Positions 7,667-27,964 are shown, counted from the stretch's first letter. The stretch is DNA of 64,000 nucleotides from an uncultured Arcobacteraceae bacterium (GCA_964022095.1 CAXHZO010000001.1:342435-406434); one strand, 5' to 3'. Numbers and translations: made by a program. Notes: a model not told the origin generated them from the letters alone.

Positions 7667-8632
7667 TTGAGAATTTTATCAGGTATTCAACCATCAGGAA
7701 CTATTCATATCGGAAACTATTTTGGTATGGTAAAAAAGATGATTGAATCACAAGATCAGGGTGAATTATTTGCATTTATTGCATCTTATCATGCCCTAAC
7801 TTCAGTAAAAGAAAAAGAGGTTTTAGAGCAAAACACTTTTGAAGCAGCAGTAAACTTTCTAGCACTTGGAATGGACCCAGAAAAATCTACATTTTGGGTA
7901 CAGCATCATGTAAAAGAGGTTTTAGAGCTTTACTGGATATTATCAAATCATACTTCTATGGGGCTTTTAGAAAGAGCTCACTCATACAAAGATAAAACTG
8001 CAAAGGGTATTCAAGCAAATCATGGATTGTTTTCATACCCTGTTTTAATGGCAGCAGATATCTTACTATTTGATTCAAATATCGTTCCAGTTGGAAAAGA
8101 CCAAATCCAACACGTAGAGATGACAAGAGATATTGCAAATAGCTTTAATCATCACTACAACACAGATATTTTAGTTTTACCTGAAGCGAAGGTTGATGAA
8201 GTGGTTGCAACAGTTCCAGGAACTGATGGTGCAAAAATGTCAAAATCGTATAACAACACTATTGATATGTTCAACACTAAGAAAAAAATCAAAAAGCAAG
8301 TTATGGGAATAGTAACTGATTCAAAAGAACTTGATGAGCCAAAAGAGTGGGAAAACTGTAATGTATATAAGCTTTGTGAACTATTTATGAACGAAGATGA
8401 ATTAAAAGAGTTACAACAAAGATATGCAACTCCAGGTGAAGGTTATGGACACTTTAAATTAAGTTTATTTGATAAAATCAATGAACATTTTGAACCATAC
8501 GCTCAAAAAAGAGAGCACTACTTAAACAATCCAAAAGAAGTACATGAAATCTTAGCACATGGTGCAAGTAAAGCTAAAAAAATAGCTGCTGCTAAAATGG
8601 AAGTTATTAGAGATACTGTGGGGTTGATTTAG
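7667..8632 (+). CDS. trpS: Tryptophan--tRNA ligase
   Basis: SGIQPSG, HIGN, YPVLMAADIL, VPVGKDQ, KMSKS; TTG start with AAGGA RBS. Confidence 0.98.
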   Translation: MRILSGIQPSGTIHIGNYFGMVKKMIESQDQGELFAFIASYHALTSVKEKEVLEQNTFEAAVNFLALGMDPEKSTFWVQHHVKEVLELYWILSNHTSMGLLERAHSYKDKTAKGIQANHGLFSYPVLMAADILLFDSNIVPVGKDQIQHVEMTRDIANSFNHHYNTDILVLPEAKVDEVVATVPGTDGAKMSKSYNNTIDMFNTKKKIKKQVMGIVTDSKELDEPKEWENCNVYKLCELFMNEDELKELQQRYATPGEGYGHFKLSLFDKINEHFEPYAQKREHYLNNPKEVHEILAHGASKAKKIAAAKMEVIRDTVGLI

Positions 8633-8666: not shown

Positions 8667-8961
8667 ATTTATATTTTTTCCAATCAGATGAATAAAACAT
8701 TCTAATACTTAATATAGTATATAGAAGACAAATAAATATAATATACTCAAATGATAATTCAAATACACTGTAAAAAAATAATGATGGATATATTATTCCA
8801 GAAAAAACAATAGCAATTATTTGTGAATAAAGTAACTCTTGCCAAAAAAGTTTAATCTTAAAAATATGTGGGAATAATATTCAAAAAAATAATCCTCCTA
8901 TATAAGAAGGTATTAAAAATATCAAAATCCATATAAATAAAGACAATTCATTATAACTCAT
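8665..8961 (-). pseudogene. Small hydrophobic membrane protein gene (98 codons) with one in-frame TGA at codon 27
   Basis: Manual translation MSYNELSLFIWILIFLIPSYIGGLFF*ILFPHIFKIKLFWQELLYSQIIAIVFSGIIYPSLFFYSVFELSFEYIIFICLLYTILSIRMFYSSDWKKYK; TGA at 8883-8881; ends at the shared terminator. Confidence 0.6.
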
Positions 8962-15105: not shown

Positions 15106-16803
15106 CTATTTTTTTTCAAATATCCTTCGTTCAAATAAAGCATCCATATCATCATGGATTTTTGAGTCTTTATCTAAAAAGATTAATTTATCTTTATTTA
15201 ACTGTTTTACATTTTTTAAACCCATAACTGCTAATAAACTTTTCATACTTTTTAGCAAATTATTATGGTAATTTTTTATATAATCAGAGTGTTTTTTTAC
15301 AAAATAGTGCTTTCTCTTTTTTATATCTTGTGTTGCAAGACCAACTGGGCATTGATGCTTTGTAGAACCAGAGCAGTATCTTGCTCTAATACACCCTGCA
15401 CTCATCATAAAACCTCTAGCAATTTGTACAAAATCAGCACCTAAACTTAAAATAATTACAATATCATCAGGCGTCAAAATTTTACCACTTGCACTTATTT
15501 TCACTAAATCTCTAATCTCATAATCTTTTAATACTTTATCAACTAAATAAACAGCATCTCTAATATCCATACCAATTCTTTCCATCATATCAAGTGGAGC
15601 TGTAGCACTTCCACCACTACCTCCATCTATAGATATATAATCAGGATAAGGTAAGTTCAAGGTTGCTCTTCTTTTTATCTCTTTTGCAATAGGAACAATA
15701 TTGTCATAATCTGATATAACTATTTTAATGCCAACTGGTTTTTTTGATTCCTCTTGTAATGTTCCAATAAAATCAAATAACTCTTCTAAACTGTTTGCAT
15801 ATGGAAACCTGTTTGGAGAAAATGCATCTTTGTATGCTTCAATATTTCTATAATATGCAATTGATGGTGTTACTTTTTTTGCAATTAACTTTCCACCTGT
15901 TTGTTTTGCACCTTGAGCAATTTTTATTTCTGTCATTTTACAAAAGCTCATTTGTTTTTTATATCTTTGAATATCAAACTTACCATCTTTAGTTCTTACA
16001 CCATAAAAACCTGAACTTATTTGTAAAATAATATCAGGCATATCAGCAGGAACTTCTTTAGGGAAAGCCTCAATTGGTGCATCCCAGTTTGGTCTATAAA
16101 AACATTCATTTTGCTTATTAAAGACATATGTATCTGCTAAAGGATCTTTTCTAAATACTAGTTTTCTATAAAAATCAACTGCAACTGGAAAGTTAAAGAA
16201 AAACTTTGAAAGAGCAAAAACTTTTTGTTCAAATTTATTTCCTTTTACTTGCGTTATATATGCTTTATCATAATCATTATGTGTAACGAAAAAGTTTGAA
16301 GTTAATCCACCTTCTCCACTATTTATAGGAAATTTAGCCATTTGTGAGCCTTGAACAAATGCTCTTGTTCCTTCTGGGGAAATAGACCCATCACTCATAG
16401 GAGCTCTAGCTATTATTGAAGATGTTACAAAAGGTTTTTCTCTATCTTGTCCAAATACAATTGAAAAATCATTTTCTACTTCATCATCATTTAAAACAAT
16501 ATTTGTATGTCTTAACATAAATTTTGGTTTAGGAAGAGGTTGGCCAGGAGAGAAAGATGAAAAATTTACTTTATCCCTTGATGCACTATAAACCCAATCA
16601 AGTTTATCCATTGATTCATAGAATTTTTCATCACCAAAGTATTGTCTAAAAGGTTCTCTAAACTCTTGAAAAACAAATCTTAATCTTCCAATAATTGGAT
16701 AATTAACTAAAATTTGATGCTTTCTTTGAACATACTTATCATGTACATACCAAGCAACCATCACAATTATAAAAAATAAGAATACAAATATCCCAGCTGT
16801 CAT
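15106..16803 (-). CDS. Membrane-anchored FMN-binding glutamate synthase family protein
   Basis: N-terminal TM, NYPIIGRLR, NSGEGG, EIKIAQGAK, KPVGIK, IDGGSGGSATAP, ARGFMMSAGC...CPVGLATQD. Confidence 0.88.
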   Translation of the reverse strand: MTAGIFVFLFFIIVMVAWYVHDKYVQRKHQILVNYPIIGRLRFVFQEFREPFRQYFGDEKFYESMDKLDWVYSASRDKVNFSSFSPGQPLPKPKFMLRHTNIVLNDDEVENDFSIVFGQDREKPFVTSSIIARAPMSDGSISPEGTRAFVQGSQMAKFPINSGEGGLTSNFFVTHNDYDKAYITQVKGNKFEQKVFALSKFFFNFPVAVDFYRKLVFRKDPLADTYVFNKQNECFYRPNWDAPIEAFPKEVPADMPDIILQISSGFYGVRTKDGKFDIQRYKKQMSFCKMTEIKIAQGAKQTGGKLIAKKVTPSIAYYRNIEAYKDAFSPNRFPYANSLEELFDFIGTLQEESKKPVGIKIVISDYDNIVPIAKEIKRRATLNLPYPDYISIDGGSGGSATAPLDMMERIGMDIRDAVYLVDKVLKDYEIRDLVKISASGKILTPDDIVIILSLGADFVQIARGFMMSAGCIRARYCSGSTKHQCPVGLATQDIKKRKHYFVKKHSDYIKNYHNNLLKSMKSLLAVMGLKNVKQLNKDKLIFLDKDSKIHDDMDALFERRIFEKK

Positions 16804-16865: not shown

Positions 16866-17732
16866 TTAAAAACTATTAATTAAACCTGCAATTACGACAC
16901 AAAAAAGACCTACTATATAAGCTGTTTGAAGAGGTTCATTAAAAAACATGATCAAGTAAACAGCTGATATAATGGGCGTTAAAAATATAAATGGTGCTAA
17001 AAAAGATGCTTGAGTTAACCTCAATGCATTTATCCAAAATAGATATGAAAACCCATTAATTAAAACACCATTTAATACTACTGGTAAAAGTTCATTTGTT
17101 GTTGGTAATAAAAAAGAAGAAAAGTAGTTCATTGAAAAAAATGAAGCCACTGTAGCACTTAAAAAATATATACTAATTGCACTAATTGGTTCATACTTAA
17201 CTTTTTTTCCTAAAATAGAAAAAAGAGCAAAAGAGCTTGCACCTAAAAATACTAAAAAGATTACATAAGGATTATCTAAATAAACTTTAGAAAAATCACC
17301 TTTTGTTAAAACAAAAATTACACCAATAAAACCAATAATAATTGATAATACTTTTTGTAAAGTTAATTTCTCATTTAAAACTAATAAAGATAAAAAAACT
17401 ATAGATATAGGCCATGTATATTGTATAACTAAAACCTCTAAACCTTTAGCTTCTTTATATCCTAAATACAAAAAAAGATAGTATATATATGTTCCAAGTA
17501 AACCTAAAACAATTAATATAAGCCAATCTTTTAGTTTGTACTGTTTAAAAATTGCTATTTTCTTTTTTATTAATGCTGTACTAAACAAGCAAATAAACGA
17601 TATCAAACTAGACCAAAACAAAAATTGATGATTATCCATATTTACTTGTGCAAGTTTTGCAACTACAGGAATCATAGCCCATAAAATCACACAAATAAAT
17701 ACTAATAAAATTGCTTTTGTTCTATTTGACAA
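16866..17732 (-). CDS. EamA/DMT family transporter
   Basis: Two EamA-like halves, IQYTWP, LNEKLT, about 10 TM segments. Confidence 0.88.
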   Translation of the reverse strand: MSNRTKAILLVFICVILWAMIPVVAKLAQVNMDNHQFLFWSSLISFICLFSTALIKKKIAIFKQYKLKDWLILIVLGLLGTYIYYLFLYLGYKEAKGLEVLVIQYTWPISIVFLSLLVLNEKLTLQKVLSIIIGFIGVIFVLTKGDFSKVYLDNPYVIFLVFLGASSFALFSILGKKVKYEPISAISIYFLSATVASFFSMNYFSSFLLPTTNELLPVVLNGVLINGFSYLFWINALRLTQASFLAPFIFLTPIISAVYLIMFFNEPLQTAYIVGLFCVVIAGLINSF

Positions 17733-17765
17733 AAAACTACCTTTAAAATAAGAAGTTAAACCTTC

Positions 17766-20700
17766 TTATTTTACTTCCCTTGCTCCAATATTTCCATATC
17801 TGTGGAATGAGTGAGAAACTGATTGTTCTTGGAAGTAGTTTAATAACTCTAATCTTCCCTCCATCATTGGTTCTTGTCTTACAATAAATGTTAAACTTTC
17901 TGTTGCTTTTTCAAATACTTTAGTAGGAACTTTAGAAACACTTGAGTAGATAACTCTTTGATAATTAGAAATTGTTGACATAAACTGATCATCAGTTTCA
18001 ATAGCAATTGAATCACCTGCCCCAAATAACTCTTTAGAGCTTTCTAATAATTTTTGAACTTCTGAATTGTTGTTAATTGAAACTTTAAAATTAACACCAG
18101 AAACTTTTGCTGCTAAAATTCTAGATACTGATTCAAATATAGTATCATCACTACTTACTCTAATAACAACTTTCTTTAAAGGAACATATCTAAAGTGATT
18201 GTCTTCACCTCTTACTTCACAATAATCTTTTTCAACACTAAACTCATCTTCATAGTTTTCAAGATATGATTGCAGTGCAACTGATAATTTTTCAAATTCA
18301 TCTTTATTTGATCTAGTTTGTTTACAAGTATCAATAAATTTTGTTAACTCATTTGTATATCTTCTTTTTACTTTTGGAACTGATTTTTCTGTAAAGTTAA
18401 CAAATTGAGTTATATAATTGTAAATACCAACTTTTCTACCTGCTCCAATTGCAGATTTACCCATACCACCAAATGGCTGTCTTAATACGATTGCACCAGT
18501 TGTCCCTCTATTTACATAAAGATTCCCAGCTTTTAAATTTGCTTTCCAGTACGATACTTCTCTTTCATCTAGTGATTCAATTCCAGAAGTTAATCCATAT
18601 CCAGTAGAGTTTACAATATCAATTGCATGCTTTAAATCTTTTGCTTTCATTACAGCAAGTACTGGTCCAAATAACTCATTCATATGAATAAAGTTACCCT
18701 CTTCAACTCCCCATTTAATTGAAGGCTTTAACATAAACTCATTATCATCTGCATACTCAGGAGCTAATAACCATGATTCATTTTTTTCTAATGATGAGAT
18801 AGCTTTTTTAAGATTACCTGATACTGGATTTGCTAAAGTTCCTATTTTATTAGAAAAGTCCCAAACCGTACCAACACTCATAGAACGTGCAGTATCAACT
18901 AAAGCTTTTTTAAACGCTTCATCATTATAAACTTCCTCTTCTAAAACTAAAAGTGAAGTAGCAGAACATTTTTGTCCTGAGTTGTTAAATGCACTTAAAC
19001 ATACATTTTTAACTGCTTGTTCTCTATCTGCCATATTTGTAACAATTGTTGCATCTTTTCCACCAGTCTCTGCAGTTAATAATAAATCTGGTCTAGTTTT
19101 TAACATAGAAGCAGCTGTATCTTCACCACCAGTTAAAATTACAAAATCAACATCTTTATTAGCAATTAAATGCTCACCTGCAAGTGCTCCTGGACAAGGT
19201 GCAAACTGTAAAACATTTTTTGAAATTCCAGCATCCCAGAAACATTTACACATTTCATATGCAGTTAATGCTGCAACTGAAGCTGGCTTGATAATAACAG
19301 TATTACCAGCAGATAAAGCAGATGCAACTCCACCTAAAGGAATAGCTACTGGGAAGTTCCATGGTGGAACAACAACTCCAACACCTTTACCTGTAAATTC
19401 TAAGTTTCCATACTGTTCCCAATGACCAGCACTGTGTGCATAAAATTCGATAAAGTCAACTGCTTCTGATACTTCTACATCAGTTTCTGTAAATATTTTC
19501 CCAACTTCAGCAGCGGCAACACCAATTAAATCATCTCTTCTTTCTCTAACTTTTATTGCAGCTTCTTTTAATAAGGCATGTCTTTGTTTATTAGTTAAAC
19601 TTCTCCAACCATCAACATCATCTTTTGCTACTTGTACTGCTTTTTGTAAATCTTGTGCAGTTGCATTTGCAAATTTACCTGCAAGTACTCCTTCTTTTAA
19701 TTGAGATTTATCAATAGCATCTACTATTTTTCTATCTCCAATTAAATCTTCACCACCAATTACAACTGGAGCAACTTCATGTTGTGTATCTTTTGTAAAC
19801 TTCCATTTTTTTACAATATTTCTTGCCCACTCTTGGTTATTTGGTAAAACAAAATCAGTATCAGCTTCAGCGTGGTATTCTCCTAAATCATAAGAAGAGC
19901 CTTTAAAATCATCCCACTTTTCATTTAATCTATCTTGTGTTCTTTTTGCACCTACAAAAGAAGTTTTTTCATTCTCAAAAGATTTTAAGAATAACTCTTT
20001 TTGCATTTTCCAATCCCTTGAACCAACTTGTAGCCCAAATGAATATCTAATAAAGTTATCATCACCCGTATTTTCATCTAATCTTCTAACTAAATAGGCA
20101 ATTGCATTTGTAAACTGTTCTTTTGCAGCTGTTGGAGCATATAAAATTACAGTTTTTGAAATTTCATTAATTGCAAGTCTTGCAGACTCACTCATACCTT
20201 CTAACATTTCTAAAGTATGATATTTTGTAGTTCCAAACTCTTGAGCTAATTGTGTTGCAAATGCTAATTCAAATAAGTTATGTGATGCTGTTCCAATATG
20301 CATGTATGGTGCATTTTCTGGATTTAATGCAAACCTTGCCATTCTCTTATAGTTTGAGTCTGTATCACTTTTATCTGTATAAGTTACCATTTCCCAATGT
20401 TTTTGACTAGCTTCAGTCTCTTCCATTTCCATATTAGCACCTTTTACAAGTCTAAACTTGATAGGACTTCCACCATTTTGAACTCTATTTTTTGCCCATG
20501 CACATAAATCTTGTTGAACTAAGAATGAATCAGGAATATAAGCTTGAAGTACAATACCTGCATAAAAGTCTTTAAACTGTGGTAAGTCTAATGTTCTTTT
20601 AAATACCTCAACTGTGATATCTAAATCTCTATACTCTTCCATATCAAGATTGATGAACTTATTTGATTTTGTTCCATCTGGTGCTATATAAGGGTATTTT

Positions 20701-21335
20701 TTAGCTTGCTCATAAATTCTAGTTAATTTTTTAACTAAAGTTTGAACTGTACCTTCAAAATTAAGTGGATTAATTTGAGAATATATAGTTGAAATTTTAA
20801 TAGAAATATAGTCAATATTTGGATTTTTTAAAGCTTTTAGATACTTTTGAATTCTCTCTTCTGCTTCTTCTTCTCCAAGAACAACTTCACCAATAAGGTT
20901 AATATTTACCCTTGTTCCTTCTTTTTTTCTCATAACTAAGTGTTTATTAAAAGGCTCTTCTTCTCCTTTAATAACTACTGTTTTTGTGTCTTCTCTAATT
21001 TGGTCTACGAACATTGGAACAGATAGATCAGGTACAAATTTACCGAAATTTTTAAATAGCCATAAAAGAGCTTTATCTTTTGTAGTAAAGAAGTGAGCCA
21101 TTCCATGTTTTTCTAATAAAAAGATGATTTGGTTAGCAACTCTATCATTTGATTCACATCTAAAACATTGGTCCATTAATTCAATAAGTAATGCTTTATC
21201 TTCTGGTTGTTCAAGCATTTTATTCATTTTTACATTAAATGCTTTATCCCAATCACTAACTAGCTGTGAAGCTCTGTTTTGCCATTTTTCTGCTAACTTA
21301 ACTGCAGATTCTATAATTTCTTGTTCATTTCTCAT
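17766..21335 (-). CDS. putA: Bifunctional proline dehydrogenase / P5C (glutamate semialdehyde) dehydrogenase
   Basis: PRODH motifs NLDMEEY, GIVLQAY, RLVKGAN, ASHN, AYLVRRLDEN; ALDH motifs PPWNFP, AETGGK, SGQKCSA, ELFGP, YGLTSG; no N-terminal RHH domain. Confidence 0.96.
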   Translation of the reverse strand: MRNEQEIIESAVKLAEKWQNRASQLVSDWDKAFNVKMNKMLEQPEDKALLIELMDQCFRCESNDRVANQIIFLLEKHGMAHFFTTKDKALLWLFKNFGKFVPDLSVPMFVDQIREDTKTVVIKGEEEPFNKHLVMRKKEGTRVNINLIGEVVLGEEEAEERIQKYLKALKNPNIDYISIKISTIYSQINPLNFEGTVQTLVKKLTRIYEQAKKYPYIAPDGTKSNKFINLDMEEYRDLDITVEVFKRTLDLPQFKDFYAGIVLQAYIPDSFLVQQDLCAWAKNRVQNGGSPIKFRLVKGANMEMEETEASQKHWEMVTYTDKSDTDSNYKRMARFALNPENAPYMHIGTASHNLFELAFATQLAQEFGTTKYHTLEMLEGMSESARLAINEISKTVILYAPTAAKEQFTNAIAYLVRRLDENTGDDNFIRYSFGLQVGSRDWKMQKELFLKSFENEKTSFVGAKRTQDRLNEKWDDFKGSSYDLGEYHAEADTDFVLPNNQEWARNIVKKWKFTKDTQHEVAPVVIGGEDLIGDRKIVDAIDKSQLKEGVLAGKFANATAQDLQKAVQVAKDDVDGWRSLTNKQRHALLKEAAIKVRERRDDLIGVAAAEVGKIFTETDVEVSEAVDFIEFYAHSAGHWEQYGNLEFTGKGVGVVVPPWNFPVAIPLGGVASALSAGNTVIIKPASVAALTAYEMCKCFWDAGISKNVLQFAPCPGALAGEHLIANKDVDFVILTGGEDTAASMLKTRPDLLLTAETGGKDATIVTNMADREQAVKNVCLSAFNNSGQKCSATSLLVLEEEVYNDEAFKKALVDTARSMSVGTVWDFSNKIGTLANPVSGNLKKAISSLEKNESWLLAPEYADDNEFMLKPSIKWGVEEGNFIHMNELFGPVLAVMKAKDLKHAIDIVNSTGYGLTSGIESLDEREVSYWKANLKAGNLYVNRGTTGAIVLRQPFGGMGKSAIGAGRKVGIYNYITQFVNFTEKSVPKVKRRYTNELTKFIDTCKQTRSNKDEFEKLSVALQSYLENYEDEFSVEKDYCEVRGEDNHFRYVPLKKVVIRVSSDDTIFESVSRILAAKVSGVNFKVSINNNSEVQKLLESSKELFGAGDSIAIETDDQFMSTISNYQRVIYSSVSKVPTKVFEKATESLTFIVRQEPMMEGRLELLNYFQEQSVSHSFHRYGNIGAREVK

Positions 21336-21371
21336 TTGCGATCCTTAAAATTTATTCAGTTTTAAACAAAT

Positions 21372-21451
21372 TTTAAGTAGCTTAAAGCGCACGCTTTTAA
21401 ATGTGCTTTAGAGGGGAGCAACCGCCAAGTATGCCCCTCTTGCTACTTAAA
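21372..21451 (-). other. GC-rich branched (three-way) hairpin between livF and putA
   Basis: TTTAAGTAGC/GCTACTTAAA closing stem enclosing TAAAGC/GCTTTA and AGAGGGG/CCCCTCT stems. Confidence 0.6.
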
Positions 21452-21471
21452 TATTTTTCTTCTACTATTTA

Positions 21472-22194
21472 TTAATGTTTTTTACCTAAATATGCCTCTT
21501 GAATTGTTTCAGAATTTAATAACTCTTCAGCAGTACCTTGGTGTGTAATTTTCCCAACTTCTAAAACATATGCTCTATCAGCTAATTTTAAAGCCGCTTT
21601 AGCATTTTGTTCAACTAATAAAACTGTAACACCACTTTGAGCAATCTCTTTAACAGCTTTGAAAATTGCTTTAATTAAAATTGGTGCTAATCCTAAACTT
21701 GGTTCATCAAGTATCAATAACTTTGGCTTAGACATAATAGCTCTACCAATAGCAAGCATTTGTTGCTCACCTCCAGAAAGTGTCCCAGCAAGCTGCTTTC
21801 TTCTCTCTTTTAATCTTGGTAAAATATCATATATCCAAGCAAGTGTTTCTTTATCATGGTCTTTTAATGTATAAGCACCCATCATTAAGTTTTCTTCAAC
21901 ACTTAGTGTTCCAAAAACTTTTCTTCCCTCAGGAGAATGTGCCATACCAAGAGACACAATATCATGTGCAGGAGTTGCAGTGATATCATTTTTATCAAAA
22001 ACTATACTTCCCTCTTTTGCTTTTAATAAACCAGAAATAGTTCTTAAAGTTGTAGTTTTACCAGCACCATTAGCACCTAAAATAGTTACAACTTCTCCTC
22101 TTCTAACTTGAATATCAATACCTTTAATAGCATTAATTGCTCCATATGAAACATGAAGGTTTTTTATATCTAATAATATTTCATGATCTACCAT
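21472..22194 (-). CDS. livF: HAAT-family ABC transporter ATP-binding protein
   Basis: GANGAGKTT, LSGGEQQMLAIGRA, LDEPSLGLAP, LLVEQN. Confidence 0.93.
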   Translation of the reverse strand: MVDHEILLDIKNLHVSYGAINAIKGIDIQVRRGEVVTILGANGAGKTTTLRTISGLLKAKEGSIVFDKNDITATPAHDIVSLGMAHSPEGRKVFGTLSVEENLMMGAYTLKDHDKETLAWIYDILPRLKERRKQLAGTLSGGEQQMLAIGRAIMSKPKLLILDEPSLGLAPILIKAIFKAVKEIAQSGVTVLLVEQNAKAALKLADRAYVLEVGKITHQGTAEELLNSETIQEAYLGKKH

Positions 22195-22976
22195 TATGCA
22201 TCCTCCTCATCGTCATCATCTGAACCAATATATGCCTCAATAACTCTTGGATCACTTTGAACAAAACTAGGCTCACCTTGAGAAATCTCTTTACCAAAGT
22301 TAATAACAGTTATATAATCAGTAAGATTCATAACCATTTCCATATCATGCTCAATCATCATAATTCCAAGACCCATTTCTTTGATCTTTTGAATAATTCC
22401 TGTTAACTCAATTGTTTCATTTTCATTTAATCCTGCTGCTGGTTCATCTAAAATTAATAGTTCAGGATCAGCTGCTAAGGCTCTAGCCATTTCAACTTTT
22501 CTTTGAACTCCATAAGATAAATCACCAGTTGGATGCATTGCAAATTTTGTTAAACCAAAGAATTCCATTAACTCTTCAACTTTTTTCCAATGCTTATCTT
22601 CATCTTTTCTAAATGCAGGAGTATGAACAATTGCGTGGTACCATTTTTGATTACTTTTAGTATGACATCCAGCCATAATATTTTCAGCAACACTCATCTC
22701 TTTGAACAGTCTAATATTTTGGAATGTTCTTAAAACTCCCCTTTGGGCAATTTTATGTGGAGCCATTCCTGTAATATTTTCACCTTTATATTTTATACTT
22801 CCTTTTTCAGGAGTATAAATACCTGTTACACAGTTAAATAAAGTTGTTTTTCCTGCACCATTTGGTCCAATAATTCCATAGATTTGACCTGGTTTAACTT
22901 TAATAGTTAAATCATCAATTGCAACTAATCCATGAAATAGTTTTGAAACATTTTCTATTTCTAATACATATTCCAT
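22194..22976 (-). CDS. livG: HAAT-family ABC transporter ATP-binding protein
   Basis: GPNGAGKTT, RTFQNIRLF, LDEPAAGLN, IEHDM, VIEAYIG. Confidence 0.93.
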   Translation of the reverse strand: MEYVLEIENVSKLFHGLVAIDDLTIKVKPGQIYGIIGPNGAGKTTLFNCVTGIYTPEKGSIKYKGENITGMAPHKIAQRGVLRTFQNIRLFKEMSVAENIMAGCHTKSNQKWYHAIVHTPAFRKDEDKHWKKVEELMEFFGLTKFAMHPTGDLSYGVQRKVEMARALAADPELLILDEPAAGLNENETIELTGIIQKIKEMGLGIMMIEHDMEMVMNLTDYITVINFGKEISQGEPSFVQSDPRVIEAYIGSDDDDEEDA

Positions 22977-23935
22977 TACTTATCTCCTTTCTTAGCTACT
23001 TTATCTCTAATAAATTTTGGAACAATTCCAAATTTAGCTGGCCAAACACCATTTGGTCTTAAAATCATAGTAAGTACCATAGCTGCACCAAAGATTAAAT
23101 ATCTTGATTCTTTAAACTCTGTAAATAACTCTGGCAATACAAACATTACAAATGTTCCAATAACTACACCAGGAAGTGAAGCAGATCCACCAACAAGTAC
23201 AATTGCAAAGAACATAACAGATTGCATAAAGTTAAATGATTCTGGAGATACAGCTGAATATTGAATAGCAAATATACTTCCAGCAGCACCTGCAATAGCA
23301 GCACCTAATGCAAAAGCAAATAGTTTATAATATGAGATATTTATTCCCATAGATTTAGCTGCAATTTCATCTTTATTTATGTAATATAATGCTCTACCAT
23401 AAGCTGATGTATCTAAATTTCTAATAATTAATAGTGTAATTAAAAGTAATCCAAATGCCATATAATAAATACTCATATCAGACCATAATTCATATCCAAA
23501 GATTCTAACTACATCGATTCCGAAAATACCATTAGGTCCACCAGTTAAACCAAATACATCATTTTTTAATACTTGTTCAAAAATGATATTAAATCCAATT
23601 GTTGCAACTAATAAATAATCCCCTCTTAAGTGAATAATAGGACCTGCTAATAGCACTGCTATAACAGCTGGAATAATAATTGCAAAAGGTAATGTTTCAA
23701 TAATTTCAAATCCAAAATGTACATTTAAAATTGCAGTTGTATATGCTCCCATACCAAAGAAAATGGCATGACCCATATTAAATACTCCAGCACGACCAAG
23801 AATAATATCCTGAGAAAATGCTACAACTGAGAATACTAAAAATGTAATACCAATTGATAACCAAGTTGAATCAACAAAAAGTGGGAAAAATGCCATTAAT
23901 ACGACAAAAGCTAACATTATATTTCTATTTACCAT
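22976..23935 (-). CDS. livM: HAAT-family ABC transporter permease
   Basis: GHAIFFGMGAY, LRGDYL, LTGGPNG, DEIAAKSMGIN. Confidence 0.92.
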   Translation of the reverse strand: MVNRNIMLAFVVLMAFFPLFVDSTWLSIGITFLVFSVVAFSQDIILGRAGVFNMGHAIFFGMGAYTTAILNVHFGFEIIETLPFAIIIPAVIAVLLAGPIIHLRGDYLLVATIGFNIIFEQVLKNDVFGLTGGPNGIFGIDVVRIFGYELWSDMSIYYMAFGLLLITLLIIRNLDTSAYGRALYYINKDEIAAKSMGINISYYKLFAFALGAAIAGAAGSIFAIQYSAVSPESFNFMQSVMFFAIVLVGGSASLPGVVIGTFVMFVLPELFTEFKESRYLIFGAAMVLTMILRPNGVWPAKFGIVPKFIRDKVAKKGDK

Positions 23936-24837
23936 TATACTTTCTCCGCTGTTTTTTCACCAAGTAATCCAGTTGGTTTTACAATTAAAATTACAATCAA
24001 CAAGATAAATGTGAATGCTTCTGCCCATTGTGTTGAAATATATCCTGCAATCATTGCATTAAATAATCCAAGTAATAAACCACCTAGCATCGCTCCAGGA
24101 ATTGAACCAATTCCACCAATAATTGCTGCAATAAATGCACTTAAACCATAAAGCCATCCCATATCAAATGTTAAACCTCTATAGTAAATACCAATAAATA
24201 ATCCACCAATTGCACCTAAAACTGAACCAATAACAAAAATTGTTACAATGATTCTATTTACATTAATACCCATTAGTTTTGCTGCATCTTGATCAATTGC
24301 TGTTGCTCTAATAGCTGTACCTATTTTTGTTTTATTAATAAAGAAAAATAGTGCAATCATAACAACTGCTGATAATACTAAAATCACTAATTGAGTAAAT
24401 GAAACTACTACTGTTCCAAATGTCCATGAAATATTTGGGAATAAATCAGACGGGAAAATCTTCATATTCGGTCCCCAAATTAACATAATTCCATTTTGAA
24501 TAACCAATGATGCACCAAGAGCAGAAACTACTGCACTAAGTCTTGGTGCCGTTCTTAAAGGTCTATATGCAAGACGCTCAAGAAGAACACCTACAATAGC
24601 CACTATAATTGCTGTTAAAATAAATATAATAACTATACTTACAAGATTTGTAGCACTTGCTCCAAATAGTTGTGAAAAAATTGTCAGTCCAACATATGCA
24701 GAAAAGGCAACAAGGTCACCGTGTGCGAAGTTAATTAACTTCATCACACCGTATACCATTGTATAACCTAAAGCTACTAATGCATAAAGACTTCCAATAG
24801 TTAAACCATTTATTAACTGTTGAAGAAAAATATCCAT
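23935..24837 (-). CDS. livH: HAAT-family ABC transporter permease
   Basis: YALVALGYTMVYGVMKLINFAHG, ERLAYRPLR, GGIGSIPGA, PTGLLG. Confidence 0.93.
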   Translation of the reverse strand: MDIFLQQLINGLTIGSLYALVALGYTMVYGVMKLINFAHGDLVAFSAYVGLTIFSQLFGASATNLVSIVIIFILTAIIVAIVGVLLERLAYRPLRTAPRLSAVVSALGASLVIQNGIMLIWGPNMKIFPSDLFPNISWTFGTVVVSFTQLVILVLSAVVMIALFFFINKTKIGTAIRATAIDQDAAKLMGINVNRIIVTIFVIGSVLGAIGGLFIGIYYRGLTFDMGWLYGLSAFIAAIIGGIGSIPGAMLGGLLLGLFNAMIAGYISTQWAEAFTFILLIVILIVKPTGLLGEKTAEKV

Positions 24838-24856
24838 AATACCTCTTTATTTATGA

Positions 24857-25972
24857 TTATTGTACAACTTCTTTTGTACCATCATTTTTTAATCTATATA
24901 CAACAAATTTTGCTCCAACTCTTTCACCATCTTCTCTAATGTTAAATGGTCCAGTAATTCCTGGGAAGTCTTTCATATCATTTCTAATATATTCAGAAAT
25001 AGTTTTTGTGTCTAAAGATTTTGTTTTCTCTGCTGCTTCTAAAATAGCTCTTAATCCATCTGCATTAGTTACAGGCCAAATTGATGGAGGATCAATTTTA
25101 AATCTTTCTTTATATGCAGTTAAATATTTTTTAGCTTCTTTATAAGGTAAAATCTCTGGTGTTGGGAAGTTAATTAAAACTGTACCTTCTGCAGATTTTC
25201 CAGCTAATTTATAAAAGTCTGGATTATCATTAGAATCACCACCAACAAAATCAGCTTTAATTCCAAGTTGTGCTTGTTGTGATCTTAATTGACCACCATC
25301 AGTGTAATATCCTGAATAATAAATTACATCTGGATTCATTGATTTAATTTTTGTTAATACTGCTGTAAAGTTTTGAGTACCTGATTTAATTTTACCTCTA
25401 AAGATAACATTTCCACCAATTTTTTTAATTGACTCTTCAGTTGCTGTACCTAAACCGTCTGAGTAAGAAGAGTAATCAGATAAAACAACAATTTTTTCAT
25501 ATTTTTTCTCATTTACTAAATATTCCGCTGTAAAATCAGACTGTGCTGAATTTGGGAATGAATTTCTAAAGAAAGTCCAGTATTTTTTCTTAATTAAAGA
25601 ATCACTTGTACCATCACTAGTTTGTAAAACTTTACTTCTATAGTAAGTAGTTTGTGCAGCTTCAGTTGCACCTGATGTATAAGAACCAATTACTGCAATA
25701 ACACCTGCATTTGATAATTTTTTAGCACAAACAGCTGCTTTTTGAGCTTTTGCTTCATCATCACAAGTTACAACTTCGATTTTCTTACCTAAAAGTCCAC
25801 CTTGTTCATTCTTTTCATCTGCAATTAATCTTACAAAGTTATCAATACTTTGACCTTCATTTGCATACTTACCAGTAATAGGTGCTTGAACACCAATTTT
25901 TACAACATCACTTGCCATTAAAGAACAAGCTAATACACCACTTAGTGCAACTAATTTTGTTAAATTCTTCAT
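24857..25972 (-). CDS. HAAT-family (LivJ/LivK-like) periplasmic amino-acid-binding protein; substrate possibly proline
   Basis: Signal peptide MKNLTKLVALSGVLACSLMA, KIGVQAPITG, GGLLGKKIE, VIGSYTSG; AAGGAG RBS before ATG at 25972. Confidence 0.9.
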   Translation of the reverse strand: MKNLTKLVALSGVLACSLMASDVVKIGVQAPITGKYANEGQSIDNFVRLIADEKNEQGGLLGKKIEVVTCDDEAKAQKAAVCAKKLSNAGVIAVIGSYTSGATEAAQTTYYRSKVLQTSDGTSDSLIKKKYWTFFRNSFPNSAQSDFTAEYLVNEKKYEKIVVLSDYSSYSDGLGTATEESIKKIGGNVIFRGKIKSGTQNFTAVLTKIKSMNPDVIYYSGYYTDGGQLRSQQAQLGIKADFVGGDSNDNPDFYKLAGKSAEGTVLINFPTPEILPYKEAKKYLTAYKERFKIDPPSIWPVTNADGLRAILEAAEKTKSLDTKTISEYIRNDMKDFPGITGPFNIREDGERVGAKFVVYRLKNDGTKEVVQ

Positions 25973-26000
25973 ATAACGCTCCTTATTTAATTTAATTTTT

Positions 26001-26660
26001 TTATAATGAATGCTCAATGATGTAACATCCTATACACCATTCGCCAACTTTTTCGATTTTATTTATCTCTCCTCCTTTAAAGCTTGATTTCAAATTTTTA
26101 TGTTCATTTACTATTTTGTCAAATGATTCAATTATTGCGCTTAATCTCTCATCTGCTTTCTTTCTTGCACTTGATGAAATATCTAAATAAAAAGCGAAAA
26201 CTCCATAATCTAATGTTGTTTCATCTTTTTGCTCTCGCTCTAACATTTTACACATTAGTTCAATATCATCTAAATACTCTTGTTGAACATTTCTAACACC
26301 ATTTTTAATAGACATTACAACTTTAGAAATTGAATCATTATCACTTTTATGCGTAAATCTCTCATCTAAAGTAACACACATTGTTCTATCAATGATGTAT
26401 TTACTTTTCATAAACTCTCTAAAATCACTTCTATTTGGAAGTGAACATCTTAAAATATCAGATACTGTTGCATCTAAAAAAACCTCTGGTGCATCAGATA
26501 ACTTTCCAATTTCTTGTGCAACATGAATTGATAAAAACTTTGGTGGTGCATATGATAAATATAATTCATCACATGTCCAAAAAGTATAGTTTGTTTTAGC
26601 ATTTAAAATACCAGCTATTACCGAATCAATTAGATCATCTTTTTTGGGAAATATACTCAT
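26001..26660 (-). CDS. Hypothetical protein, possible degenerate PD-(D/E)XK nuclease-like fold
   Basis: 219-aa ORF coupled (TAATG) to the upstream RHH gene; alpha/beta pattern with YAPP, RTMCVTL, VVMSIKN, YLDDIE, YGVFAF. Fold call is by-eye inference. Confidence 0.75.
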   Translation of the reverse strand: MSIFPKKDDLIDSVIAGILNAKTNYTFWTCDELYLSYAPPKFLSIHVAQEIGKLSDAPEVFLDATVSDILRCSLPNRSDFREFMKSKYIIDRTMCVTLDERFTHKSDNDSISKVVMSIKNGVRNVQQEYLDDIELMCKMLEREQKDETTLDYGVFAFYLDISSSARKKADERLSAIIESFDKIVNEHKNLKSSFKGGEINKIEKVGEWCIGCYIIEHSL

Positions 26661-26893
26661 TAGTCTAACTCCACATAGTTTTCATCAACTTCTTGAACTA
26701 TTCCACTTTCAAATAAAATATCTTCAATTAATTTATTTTTAGAAATATTTAACTCACCACTTAAAACTTTTAAGGCATCATCTAATTTACTATCAATTTT
26801 TATAGTTAATTGAGAAATCTTTTTCTTATTTGATTTAGTGTGTTTATTAATTACTGTTTGAATTACTGATCTTTTATTTTTTAGCTTTGCCAA
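26660..26893 (-). CDS. Ribbon-helix-helix (CopG/Arc-like) DNA-binding protein
   Basis: QLTIKIDSKLDDALKVLSGELNISKNKLIEDIL fits strand-helix-(G/N)xS-helix RHH pattern; TTG start, AGGGG RBS. Confidence 0.75.
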   Translation of the reverse strand: MAKLKNKRSVIQTVINKHTKSNKKKISQLTIKIDSKLDDALKVLSGELNISKNKLIEDILFESGIVQEVDENYVELD

Positions 26894-26916
26894 AACTGCC
26901 CCTATTGCTTAAGAAA

Positions 26917-26940
26917 TTTTAGTACTACTTTTAGTACTAC
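26917..26940. promoter_or_regulatory. Perfect tandem 12-bp repeat, candidate RHH operator
   Basis: TTTTAGTACTAC twice (26917-26928, 26929-26940), each with palindromic AGTACT, between a minus-strand TG-a-AATAAT -10-like element (about 26956-26964) and the RBS. Confidence 0.6.
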
Positions 26941-27055
26941 CTTTTTTTCTTTAAGCATTATTTCACAGTAAAACTTAACTGAATCTTAATTTTTTTGAGT
27001 TTTGTGCCTATTATTTATACAATTTTGATTTTTACTCATAATTGCTACGTTGTTG

Positions 27056-27964
27056 CTATTTTAGGCCATTATCTGAATTAGTATTCATTGTTTTTAGTTG
27101 CTGAATTATCAATCCAGCAATAATTGTAATTAATCCAATTACAGTAGAAATATAAATCTCTTCACCTAAAATAAAATAGATGAAAATTAAAGAGATGAAA
27201 GGAGATAAAAATATTAAATTTGCAATTTTTGCAGTTGATTGAGCATATTGCATTGCATTTAACCAAAATAAAAAAGTAATTCCCATTTCAAATACTCCTA
27301 CATAAAAAGATGATGCAATCCCTCTTATATCAGGAATAGCTGATAGCTCGCCTGTGAAATATGCATATATAAAAATGATAGGTATAGAAAATAAAAAGTT
27401 GGCAAAAACTGAAATAAGAGGATCTGCTTTTGTTTTAGTATTAGTAATCCAATATAAAGACCAAAGTACAGTAGATAATAAAGCTAAAAGTACTCCATCT
27501 ATATTTGAAAAACTCAAACTAAAAGGTGCTCCTTTTGTTGATATAATTAAAACACCAAAATAGCAAATAATACCTGCAACAATATCATTTATTGTTAATT
27601 TTTGTTTTAAAAAAATTACTGAAAGATAAGTTAACATTAAAGCCCAAGTATAATTAATAGCTTGTGCTTCTTGTGCTGGTAATAGCTCATAAGCTTTAAA
27701 CAAAACTAAGTAGTATAAAAATGGATTAATTAATGCTAGTATGAATATCTGAAGATATGATTTTTTTATATAATTTAAAACATTTCTTAACTGTTTTTTA
27801 TATGTAACAATTGCAAATAAAATAAGAAAAGAACTAATAGAAGCATACAAAACTAATTGTACAGCAGATAAGTATTGTAATGAAATTTTAAATGCAGTTG
27901 CAACGGTTGACCAGAAGAATATTGCTATTAATGCAAATTTATATGCTGTAGTTTGTGATTTCAT
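27056..27964 (-). CDS. EamA/DMT family transporter
   Basis: WSTVATAFK, INPFLYYLVLFKAY, AQAINYTW, NLIFLSPF. Confidence 0.9.
   Translation of the reverse strand: MKSQTTAYKFALIAIFFWSTVATAFKISLQYLSAVQLVLYASISSFLILFAIVTYKKQLRNVLNYIKKSYLQIFILALINPFLYYLVLFKAYELLPAQEAQAINYTWALMLTYLSVIFLKQKLTINDIVAGIICYFGVLIISTKGAPFSLSFSNIDGVLLALLSTVLWSLYWITNTKTKADPLISVFANFLFSIPIIFIYAYFTGELSAIPDIRGIASSFYVGVFEMGITFLFWLNAMQYAQSTAKIANLIFLSPFISLIFIYFILGEEIYISTVIGLITIIAGLIIQQLKTMNTNSDNGLK

Follow-up and report, generated by a model that had tools for sequence, protein, structure and literature searches.

A conserved ribbon-helix-helix protein and its predicted nuclease-fold partner as a candidate dedicated regulator of proline catabolism in Arcobacter-like bacteria

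Introduction

How are proline uptake and proline breakdown controlled in bacteria whose PutA carries no DNA-binding domain of its own? The question is raised by a 64,000-nucleotide stretch of DNA from an uncultured Arcobacteraceae bacterium (GCA_964022095.1 CAXHZO010000001.1:342435-406434; this whole stretch is called the window below), in which putA stands near the end of a minus-strand gene run headed by two small genes. The first encodes a ribbon-helix-helix (RHH) protein and the second a 219-residue protein for which we use the name X219. The window is AT-rich, with about 29% G+C, the host genome has 2.57 Mb, and the nearest protein relatives of the host belong to named Arcobacter, Halarcobacter and Poseidonibacter. 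An earlier interpretation of the window, made by a model from the letters of the DNA (the sequence-only reading), held that its PutA is without an RHH domain, and this is confirmed by Pfam, which shows no RHH or other DNA-binding family in the protein at E <= 0.01. We regard it as fairly probable that the RHH protein and X219 act together as a regulator dedicated to proline catabolism, in which an RHH repressor specific to this operon has X219 for its partner or sensor. The genes of the run that bear on this proposal are as follows.

26660-26893, minus strand: RHH gene, 77 aa, TTG start, Pfam RHH_1
26001-26660, minus strand: X219 gene, 219 aa, 1-nt overlap with the RHH gene, predicted PD-(D/E)xK fold
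24857-25973, minus strand: HAAT (liv-type) periplasmic binding protein, Peripla_BP_6 at E 1e-54, signal-peptide-like N-terminus after the ATG at 25973
23935-24837, minus strand: livH, permease, BPD_transp_2
22976-23935, minus strand: livM, permease, BPD_transp_2
22194-22976, minus strand: livG, ATPase, ABC_tran
21472-22194, minus strand: livF, ATPase, ABC_tran
17766-21335, minus strand: putA, 1189 aa, bifunctional proline dehydrogenase and pyrroline-5-carboxylate (P5C)/glutamate semialdehyde dehydrogenase with a C-terminal extension

Linkage of the gene pair to putA

The sequence-only reading had named a survey of gene neighbourhoods as a check on its proposal, and that survey finds the RHH/X219 pair conserved and linked to putA and usually to a liv-type importer. 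The gene order of the window recurs in 7 of the 10 relatives' loci first examined and in many more, so the arrangement is non-random. X219 was found in 11 and PutA in 14 genomes of a first sample of 41 related genomes, where every close X219 copy adjoins putA. Among 184 genomes of the family, 73 have X219, 81 have the proline dehydrogenase (PRODH) part of PutA and 71 have both; 66 of the 77 X219 matches in these genomes lie within 5 kb of putA. The layouts of the 77 matches are as follows.

51 of 77 matches: X219 heads a co-directional operon, with putA 3.1-4.8 kb downstream
3 of 77 matches: X219 lies <400 bp upstream of putA, with an importer-free interval
12 of 77 matches: X219 is divergent from putA, with the RHH gene between them
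3 of 77 matches: X219 lies on the other side of putA
6 of 77 matches: X219 is on a (short) contig without putA
2 of 77 matches: X219 is in a genome without a putA match

One of the two genomes with X219 only carries a distant homologue (27% identical) on a 1.5-kb contig; the assembly of the other is 84% complete and its gene also sits on a short contig. Each genome has a single X219 copy, apart from the paralogues on a different catabolic operon that are treated below. Linkage extends to a second family of the same order, which has the full RHH-X219-liv-putA operon and X219 in 15 of 19 sampled genomes.

The sequence-only reading tied the pair to liv and putA together. Its putA half stands, and its liv half has to be given up as a constant association, since the importer is dispensable or swappable. 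It is absent at the pair loci of two genomes (G016 and G005), replaced in a third (G195) and separately transcribed in the 12 genomes with the divergent layout, where a nearby liv operon ends in a plain terminator hairpin. Therefore, putA and not liv is the constant partner of the pair, and one uptake system can take the place of another in the operon. The replacement in G195 (L041 6094-9023), which occupies the place of livJHMGF between X219 and putA, is a polar-amino-acid-type ATP-binding cassette (ABC) importer with a binding protein, two permeases and one ATPase, all named by eye.

Some observations concern the wider distribution of X219. One Sulfuricurvum locus related to X219 was found with a narrowed alignment. 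The X219 of the window has a terminal branch of 0.37 on the X219 tree, against 0.01-0.2 for its nearest relatives, and the only other sampled genome of the same genus has neither X219 nor putA.

Promoter and candidate operator

An exact tandem of two GTAGTACTAAAA copies lies upstream of the RHH gene (26917-26940). A pair of palindromic heptamers, GTAsTAC-N5-GTAsTAC, is the better description of this candidate operator, which belongs to the following promoter region.

26971-26989, minus strand: TTAAGNTT-N-TTAAGTTT, promoter element (-35 region or upstream element), position conserved before the RHH, putA and liv promoters of relatives
26957-26967, minus strand: TGTGAAATAAT, putative -10-like box, conserved as TGnGAAATAAT or TGnGATAAT
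26922-26940, minus strand: GTAGTAC-TAAAA-GTAGTAC, candidate operator, two palindromic heptamers 12 bp apart centre to centre

Twenty-four aligned sites share one architecture that consists of a TTAAGTTT-type element, a TGnGAAATAAT box, a spacer of 13-16 nt between this -10-like box and the operator, the two heptamers followed by TAAAA, a further 15-35 nt and a ribosome site. Consensus scanning for promoters and terminators is uninformative in DNA of 29% G+C (50 promoter-like sites against 65 expected). The pattern GTAsTAC-N4-6-GTAsTAC has a single exact site in the 2.57-Mb genome, which is the RHH promoter; a search of the same genome for a wider regulon gave 18 near-matches, 15 of them inside open reading frames (ORFs), with the exact match at the RHH promoter only. 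When one mismatch is allowed, 15 pair-bearing loci hold 19 matches, and all 19 lie upstream of the start of the RHH gene, putA or the binding-protein gene; three putA loci without the pair hold no match to the same pattern. With up to two mismatches and within about 120 nt upstream, the motif precedes 73 of 81 RHH genes. When transcription of putA or liv does not begin at the RHH promoter, as in the divergent layout and in G016, G145 and G395, the gene or operon concerned carries its own copy of the box and operator.

Protein and DNA also vary together. The RHH beta-strand has the residues Q-L-T in most proteins and Q-L-S in six, and this T or S tracks the central base of the heptamer. Heptamers are C/G-centred in 109 of 134 half-sites that belong to RHH proteins with Q-L-T, and A/T-centred in 11 of 12 half-sites that belong to RHH proteins with Q-L-S (six rows). 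The Q-L-S rows represent about three separate clades, which are the paralogue on the arginase operon, the clade of G110 and G145, and two second-family genomes. Within that second family, a sister genome combines Q-L-T with C/G-centred sites. This covariation is a pattern rather than a statistic, yet it is the outcome that direct recognition of the heptamer centre by the RHH beta-strand would give. We consider the predicted link between the RHH protein and this operator to be likely.

Properties of the RHH protein

The 77-residue protein has a basic N-terminus, an RHH core at residues 27-63 and a C-terminal tail with the sequence ESGIxxEVDENY. Its sequence makes it a member of the RHH superfamily. 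The Pfam RHH_1 match covers residues 29-60 and is borderline, passing the curated cut-off with 21.0 bits against 20.5 (E 3.1e-4), and PHROG gives an Arc-like repressor match at E 1.4e-4. The AF2 model, in which residues 27-34 are extended and residues 35-48 and 52-63 are helical (predicted local distance difference test, pLDDT, 89-95), is that of a monomer, and the RHH strand forms in the dimer only. Nearly all top Foldseek rows are RHH proteins (Arc, CopG, VapB, PutA52 and NikR); their E-values are weak (0.6-3.6), as expected for 36 residues. About 360 public proteins make up the family, and they are without functional annotation (mostly nameless, with the others under 'hypothetical protein' or automatic Joint Genome Institute (JGI) labels such as YsxB/DUF464 and HicB family).

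The sequence-only reading placed the RHH function of trifunctional PutA in a stand-alone gene at the head of the operon. The separate gene is indeed there. Descent of that gene from the PutA domain finds no support, with no PDB sequence match at E <= 10 and with the fold match to PutA52 (2rbf; rmsd, or root-mean-square deviation, 0.9 over 36 residues, E 3.1) at rank 37, below Arc and CopG. The tail ESGIxxEVDENY is invariant in 17 aligned RHH sequences and has low confidence in the AF2 monomer model. Such a segment, conserved yet predicted to be unstructured alone, is typical of those that bind a partner.

Properties of X219

X219 has no match in Pfam or NCBIfam at E <= 0.01 and none in PADLOC at E <= 1, and its PHROG rows are weak (E 0.0025 and 0.24). 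About 356 homologues were found at E <= 0.001, and none has a functional annotation beyond 'hypothetical protein' or an automatic JGI label; the protein has only 35 cluster representatives among 1.84 billion proteins. Its AF2 model has a pLDDT of 94.6 and a predicted template-modelling score of 0.92. A Foldseek search with X219 against the PDB gave nothing at E <= 0.001, and the ESM Atlas returned only clusters without a name and, at 0.76, a weak lead to MunI.

For the sequence-only reading X219 was a complete unknown; it is replaced here by a derived member of the PD-(D/E)xK nuclease-fold family. VIA-align comparisons with the X219 model return restriction or related PD-(D/E)xK endonucleases, some of known function and some not, in all of the best 18 rows, at Z-scores of only 5.6-6.7. 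Distant X219 homologues (20-28% identity) bear E..GRxDI..IEVKN, which is the PD-(D/E)xK signature, and hhalign matches the X219 clade to the clade with this motif at a probability of 99.8% (E 1.5e-28, 198 columns). Compared with the motif clade, X219 retains the first acidic residue as D63, has D/E, or Q then D, in the catalytic Asp column (Asp at 91 or 92), replaces the ExK glutamate with Ser117 in nearly all members and retains the Lys as K119. The canonical D...(D/E)xK catalytic set is thus incomplete. Between the two catalytic strands lies an invariant 11-residue insertion, LTLDERFxHKS, in which D99, R101, F102 and H104 are invariant. On this model evidence X219 is filed as a derived PD-(D/E)xK relative and not as a demonstrated nuclease; its residues suggest that a nuclease fold has here been recruited to another role.

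The settings of distant X219 relatives that bear the E..D..ExK motif (L034 4807-6618; L063-L067) resemble defence islands. One such relative follows a macro-like domain in a fusion protein and stands beside a WYL-type regulator, and others adjoin Xre-like, ATPase-like and ADP-ribosylglycohydrolase-like ORFs, with all of these neighbours named by eye. None of these motif-bearing relatives has an RHH gene or putA nearby.

A second pair on an arginase operon

A second X219 copy, 39-54% identical to the first, is present in G007, G187, G184 and G185. At the two loci examined (G007 and G184), the paralogue heads genes for a dimethylarginine dimethylaminohydrolase (DDAH)-like amidinohydrolase, ornithine cyclodeaminase (OCD) and arginase, an operon whose route leads from arginine to proline. 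The paralogue is preceded by an RHH gene and a GTAATAC-type variant of the operator in G007 and G187; an RHH gene was not recognised at the G184 locus. The pair has been duplicated as a unit onto a metabolically adjacent operon, which is what is expected of a regulator and not of an enzyme.

Gene run and neighbouring genes

The sequence-only reading described one minus-strand run of RHH, X219, binding protein, livHMGF, putA and EamA, and all of these ORFs are present where it placed them. The RHH and X219 genes overlap by 1 nt (TAATG). The gap from X219 to the binding-protein gene is 27 nt when the ATG at 25973, which has an AAGGAG ribosome site, is taken as the start; the mechanical ORF list instead starts the binding protein at a TTG at 26017. 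A gap of 19 nt separates the binding-protein gene from livH, the livH/M, livM/G and livG/F junctions are each 1-nt overlaps, and the gaps from livF to putA and from putA to EamA are 136 and 33 nt. None of the RNA runs on record covers the locus. Contigs from four runs, some of which span the X219/binding-protein and RHH/X219 junctions, are of uncertain RNA or DNA nature and do not show a transcript.

The liv-type importer is complete, with a binding protein, two BPD_transp_2 permeases and two ATPases clustered and all five matched by Pfam; livHMGF are 83-93% identical in relatives. PutA has the Pfam domains Pro_dh (residues 131-430) and Aldedh (550-978), and a sub-threshold Pfam match to the GA module. 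It matches the bifunctional PutA model of NCBIfam at E 3e-119, which is under the curated cut-off, and its match to the trifunctional model begins at model position 277.

16866-17732, minus strand: EamA/DMT transporter, EamA at E 3e-34, membership in the unit doubtful

This last gene was counted as part of the unit in the sequence-only reading. The association is not conserved, as an EamA gene is nearby in the locus of one relative (L037) alone and in a different order, and EamA is probably outside the unit. Window positions 15106-16803 (minus strand) encode a 565-aa protein with a Glu_synthase (flavin mononucleotide) domain and a hydrophobic N-terminus. A protein that is 81-83% identical is encoded directly downstream of putA in several relatives, and it may belong to the same metabolic neighbourhood as putA.

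Further control elements

Two further elements of the locus are conserved in relatives.

27043-27058, minus strand: direct repeat TAGCA-N6-TAGCA, some 95 nt before the presumed transcription start
21373-21452, minus strand: three-way-junction RNA-like element with conserved loop ACUUGGCGG, between livF and putA

TAGCA-N6-TAGCA has 13 sites in the host genome, against 1 for the backwards-read control. Most relatives keep it upstream of their RHH promoter, and it is conserved upstream of relatives' liv promoters too. The repeat was considered as the RHH operator and rejected, given its 13 genomic sites, mostly at unrelated operons. Other copies lie at 2645-2660 in the window and at G000 C1:169889, 172161, 176900 and elsewhere; judged by N-termini only, the genes that follow such sites are pta-ackA-like, make up two DUF485-like/actP-like pairs or belong to a nuo-like operon. 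A second regulator, undescribed, genome-wide and of a carbon/energy type, probably has its site in this repeat and would act on the operon through the upstream position.

In a 26-sequence alignment of the RNA-like element, 88% of cells are paired, compared to 29-52% in slid controls, and 7 pairs show compensatory change. RNAalifold on the MAFFT alignment gives the outer helix only, and the three-helix structure counted here was set by hand. The element is single-copy in the host genome and has no Rfam match at E <= 1. It also precedes putA behind the alternative importer of G195, and a weakly related copy stands behind the paralogous pair in G007 (E 0.026); its coordinates outside the window are L013 15317-15402 and L041 5932-6009. 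A search of 12 further loci (L018, L019, L030, L032, L034-L040) left 10 without a match. Loci without it include pair-bearing direct and divergent layouts in which putA directly follows its own promoter. The element may serve in RNA processing or stability, in attenuation or in the binding of a ligand. A 22-codon ORF (MRHKRR...) just upstream of putA in some relatives (L014 ~8440-8505, L016, L053, L060 and L040 ~8780-8850) precedes the RNA element or directly follows the putA operator, and is absent from the window; it could encode a leader peptide or a small protein.

Proposed mechanism and alternatives

The proposed dedicated regulator draws on gene linkage, on the conservation and placement of the operator, on protein-DNA covariation and on the fold and homology of X219; we infer DNA binding by the RHH protein, its action as a repressor rather than an activator, its contact with X219 and the kind of signal involved. 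In the host genome, a single promoter would drive RHH-X219-binding protein-livHMGF-putA, and two RHH dimers would occupy the two heptamers of GTAsTAC-N5-GTAsTAC over the transcription start and repress it. Since the same promoter would drive the RHH gene, the operon would be autoregulated, and the 1-nt overlap of start and stop would keep X219 synthesis in step with the RHH protein. X219 would bind the invariant, otherwise disordered RHH tail and tune operator affinity by a proline-related signal, which could be proline itself or a breakdown product. X219 may have descended from PD-(D/E)xK nucleases by losing the ExK glutamate and gaining the insertion LDERFxH beside the old active site, changes that fit a role in ligand binding or interaction better than DNA cutting. 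Whether X219 is a partner or sensor of the RHH protein is an evenly balanced proposition by our estimate. A tentative extension, to which we give a modest chance, would make X219 the first PD-(D/E)xK-fold small-molecule or redox sensor. It would bind proline (or P5C/glutamate) in the remodelled site or dock on PutA, and so couple the RHH repressor to proline oxidation; duplication would have put the module to a second use in the arginine-ornithine-proline operon, with the three-way-junction RNA as a further layer of control.

Several findings weigh against the proposal that the pair is a dedicated repressor system. The pair is missing from 10 of the 81 putA-bearing genomes, so putA can run without it; in three of these genomes that were inspected, putA stands alone or behind liv and the RHH gene is absent. 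Controls in which the operator pattern was read backwards gave 0-3 matches per genome, similar to the real pattern, and the case for the operator therefore rests on position and conservation and not on frequency. Eight of 81 RHH upstream regions, all of divergent layout, have no recognisable RHH-proximal motif; in these loci a good operator copy faces putA. Covariation is imperfect as well, with 25 of 134 half-sites of Q-L-T proteins A/T-centred, and its count overstates independence because the rows are related genomes. Finally, X219 retains D63, Asp 91/92 and K119, and the helix that follows bears an invariant E128; these residues might form a permuted, Cfr10I/NgoMIV-like catalytic site using E128, with residual nuclease activity.

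There are three alternatives to a repressor with a regulatory partner. RHH might be the repressor on its own, with X219 a co-expressed, non-regulatory accessory enzyme or factor of proline/arginine catabolism. This would suit the many invariant polar residues of X219 (H46, D63, D99, R101, H104, N120, R123, E128, D151 and R166) and its constant company of catabolic genes. We nonetheless hold it to be unlikely, because X219 is duplicated with the RHH gene, never alone, in arginase/OCD operons and, in inverted pairs, keeps its place next to the RHH gene and not next to putA. The one-base overlap of the two genes and an RHH tail that is invariant yet unstructured on its own also count against this alternative, and PD-(D/E)xK folds are not known as amino-acid-metabolising enzymes. 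The nuclease ancestry of X219 could alternatively be taken at face value, with X219 an active post-transcriptional nuclease that cuts, for example, the operon mRNA at the element before putA, and with the RHH protein as its inhibitor and/or a repressor. The fold, the homology to the motif-bearing clade and the kept residues D63, D91/92, K119 and E128 agree with such a role, as does the RNA-like element, which precedes putA when other cistrons are upstream and has a related copy behind the G007 pair. However, S117 replaces the ExK glutamate in nearly all members, and the 10 of 12 further loci in which the element was not found include pair-bearing ones; we therefore judge an active nuclease to be quite improbable.

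The architecture of the pair, with a small RHH gene first, a larger overlapping gene and a self-operator, is also that of a toxin-antitoxin system, and distant motif-bearing homologues occur in defence-like settings (neighbours named by eye). The pair could thus be a toxin-antitoxin-like or defence module, with an RHH antitoxin and a nuclease toxin, that merely stands next to putA. Of the features of type II toxin-antitoxin systems, the DNA-binding gene in first position and the self-operator are present, and a mobile or patchy distribution is not. Synteny with putA is stable over two families, 66 of 77 copies are within 5 kb of it, and the operator also occurs at putA and liv promoters. There are no PADLOC matches, the catalytic glutamate is lost and each genome has one copy except for paralogues on another catabolic operon. 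A chance neighbour of this kind is very unlikely in our assessment, and a repressor of proline catabolism with X219 as its partner is the reading that we prefer.

Relation to known systems

Membership of the two proteins is limited to the RHH superfamily and, as a derived branch, the PD-(D/E)xK fold superfamily; by analogy, the module would work like the RHH part of trifunctional PutA, RHH toxin-antitoxin autoregulation and ligand-controlled RHH repressors. As in trifunctional PutA of E. coli and Salmonella, the RHH part is predicted to repress put genes through repeated short operators, and PutA52 is among the fold matches. The E. coli PutA operator site is GTTGCA, whereas the candidate operator here is GTAsTAC-N5-GTAsTAC. 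The RHH part in the window is a separate 77-aa protein with no detectable sequence relation to the RHH of PutA, PutA is without a DNA-binding domain, and the partner has a predicted nuclease fold. RHH antitoxin/toxin pairs such as RelBE, ParDE, KacAT and FitAB likewise have the RHH gene first, an overlapping partner and an operator at their own promoter. In both cases one expects the partner to attach to the C-terminal tail of the RHH protein and to serve as a co-repressor; RelE is described as a co-repressor in PMC2812701. Unlike such pairs, which can be patchy and mobile, the genes studied here have a conserved chromosomal position and would control metabolic promoters (putA, liv and arginase/OCD), and the canonical catalytic motif of the partner is degenerate.

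NikR has its sensing domain fused to the RHH domain, and MetJ binds its co-repressor directly. Both couple RHH DNA binding to a small-molecule signal, as is proposed here, and NikR is among the fold matches; the presumed sensing part at this locus is instead a separate PD-(D/E)xK-fold protein. X219 shares a predicted core fold with the PD-(D/E)xK superfamily (3ijm, BstEII, OkrAI, NgoMIV, BglII and Cfr10I; VIA-align Z 5.6-6.7) and differs from it by the Ser in place of the ExK glutamate, the LTLDERFxHKS insertion, the pairing with an RHH protein and the tie to putA. Dedicated regulators of proline catabolism that are encoded beside putA, often divergently, are known elsewhere. PutR is an Lrp/AsnC-type put regulator, and PrcR/PutR regulates put genes in Bacillus. 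PruR is an AraC-type put regulator in P. aeruginosa, according to PMC5879082. PutR, PruR and PrcR/PutR belong to unrelated protein families, and none is a pair of an RHH and a nuclease-fold protein. The sequence-only reading knew of no described regulator with this architecture, and a full-text literature search, with most subscription journals outside its scope, gave no description of the pair; control of PutA-type proline catabolism in Campylobacterota was not described among the papers that it returned.

Implications

The locus offers a testable regulator with a defined candidate operator, a residue-to-base rule (T or S with a C/G or A/T centre, respectively) and a natural paralogue pair. 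If the proposal holds, a nuclease fold has been exapted as the partner of an RHH repressor, which links the logic of toxin-antitoxin autoregulation to metabolic control. If X219 were in addition a sensor of proline or its oxidation, the pair would amount to the switch of trifunctional PutA divided among separate proteins that are not covalently joined. Most likely, this conserved and unstudied pair turns the genes for proline uptake and breakdown on and off in Arcobacter-like bacteria.

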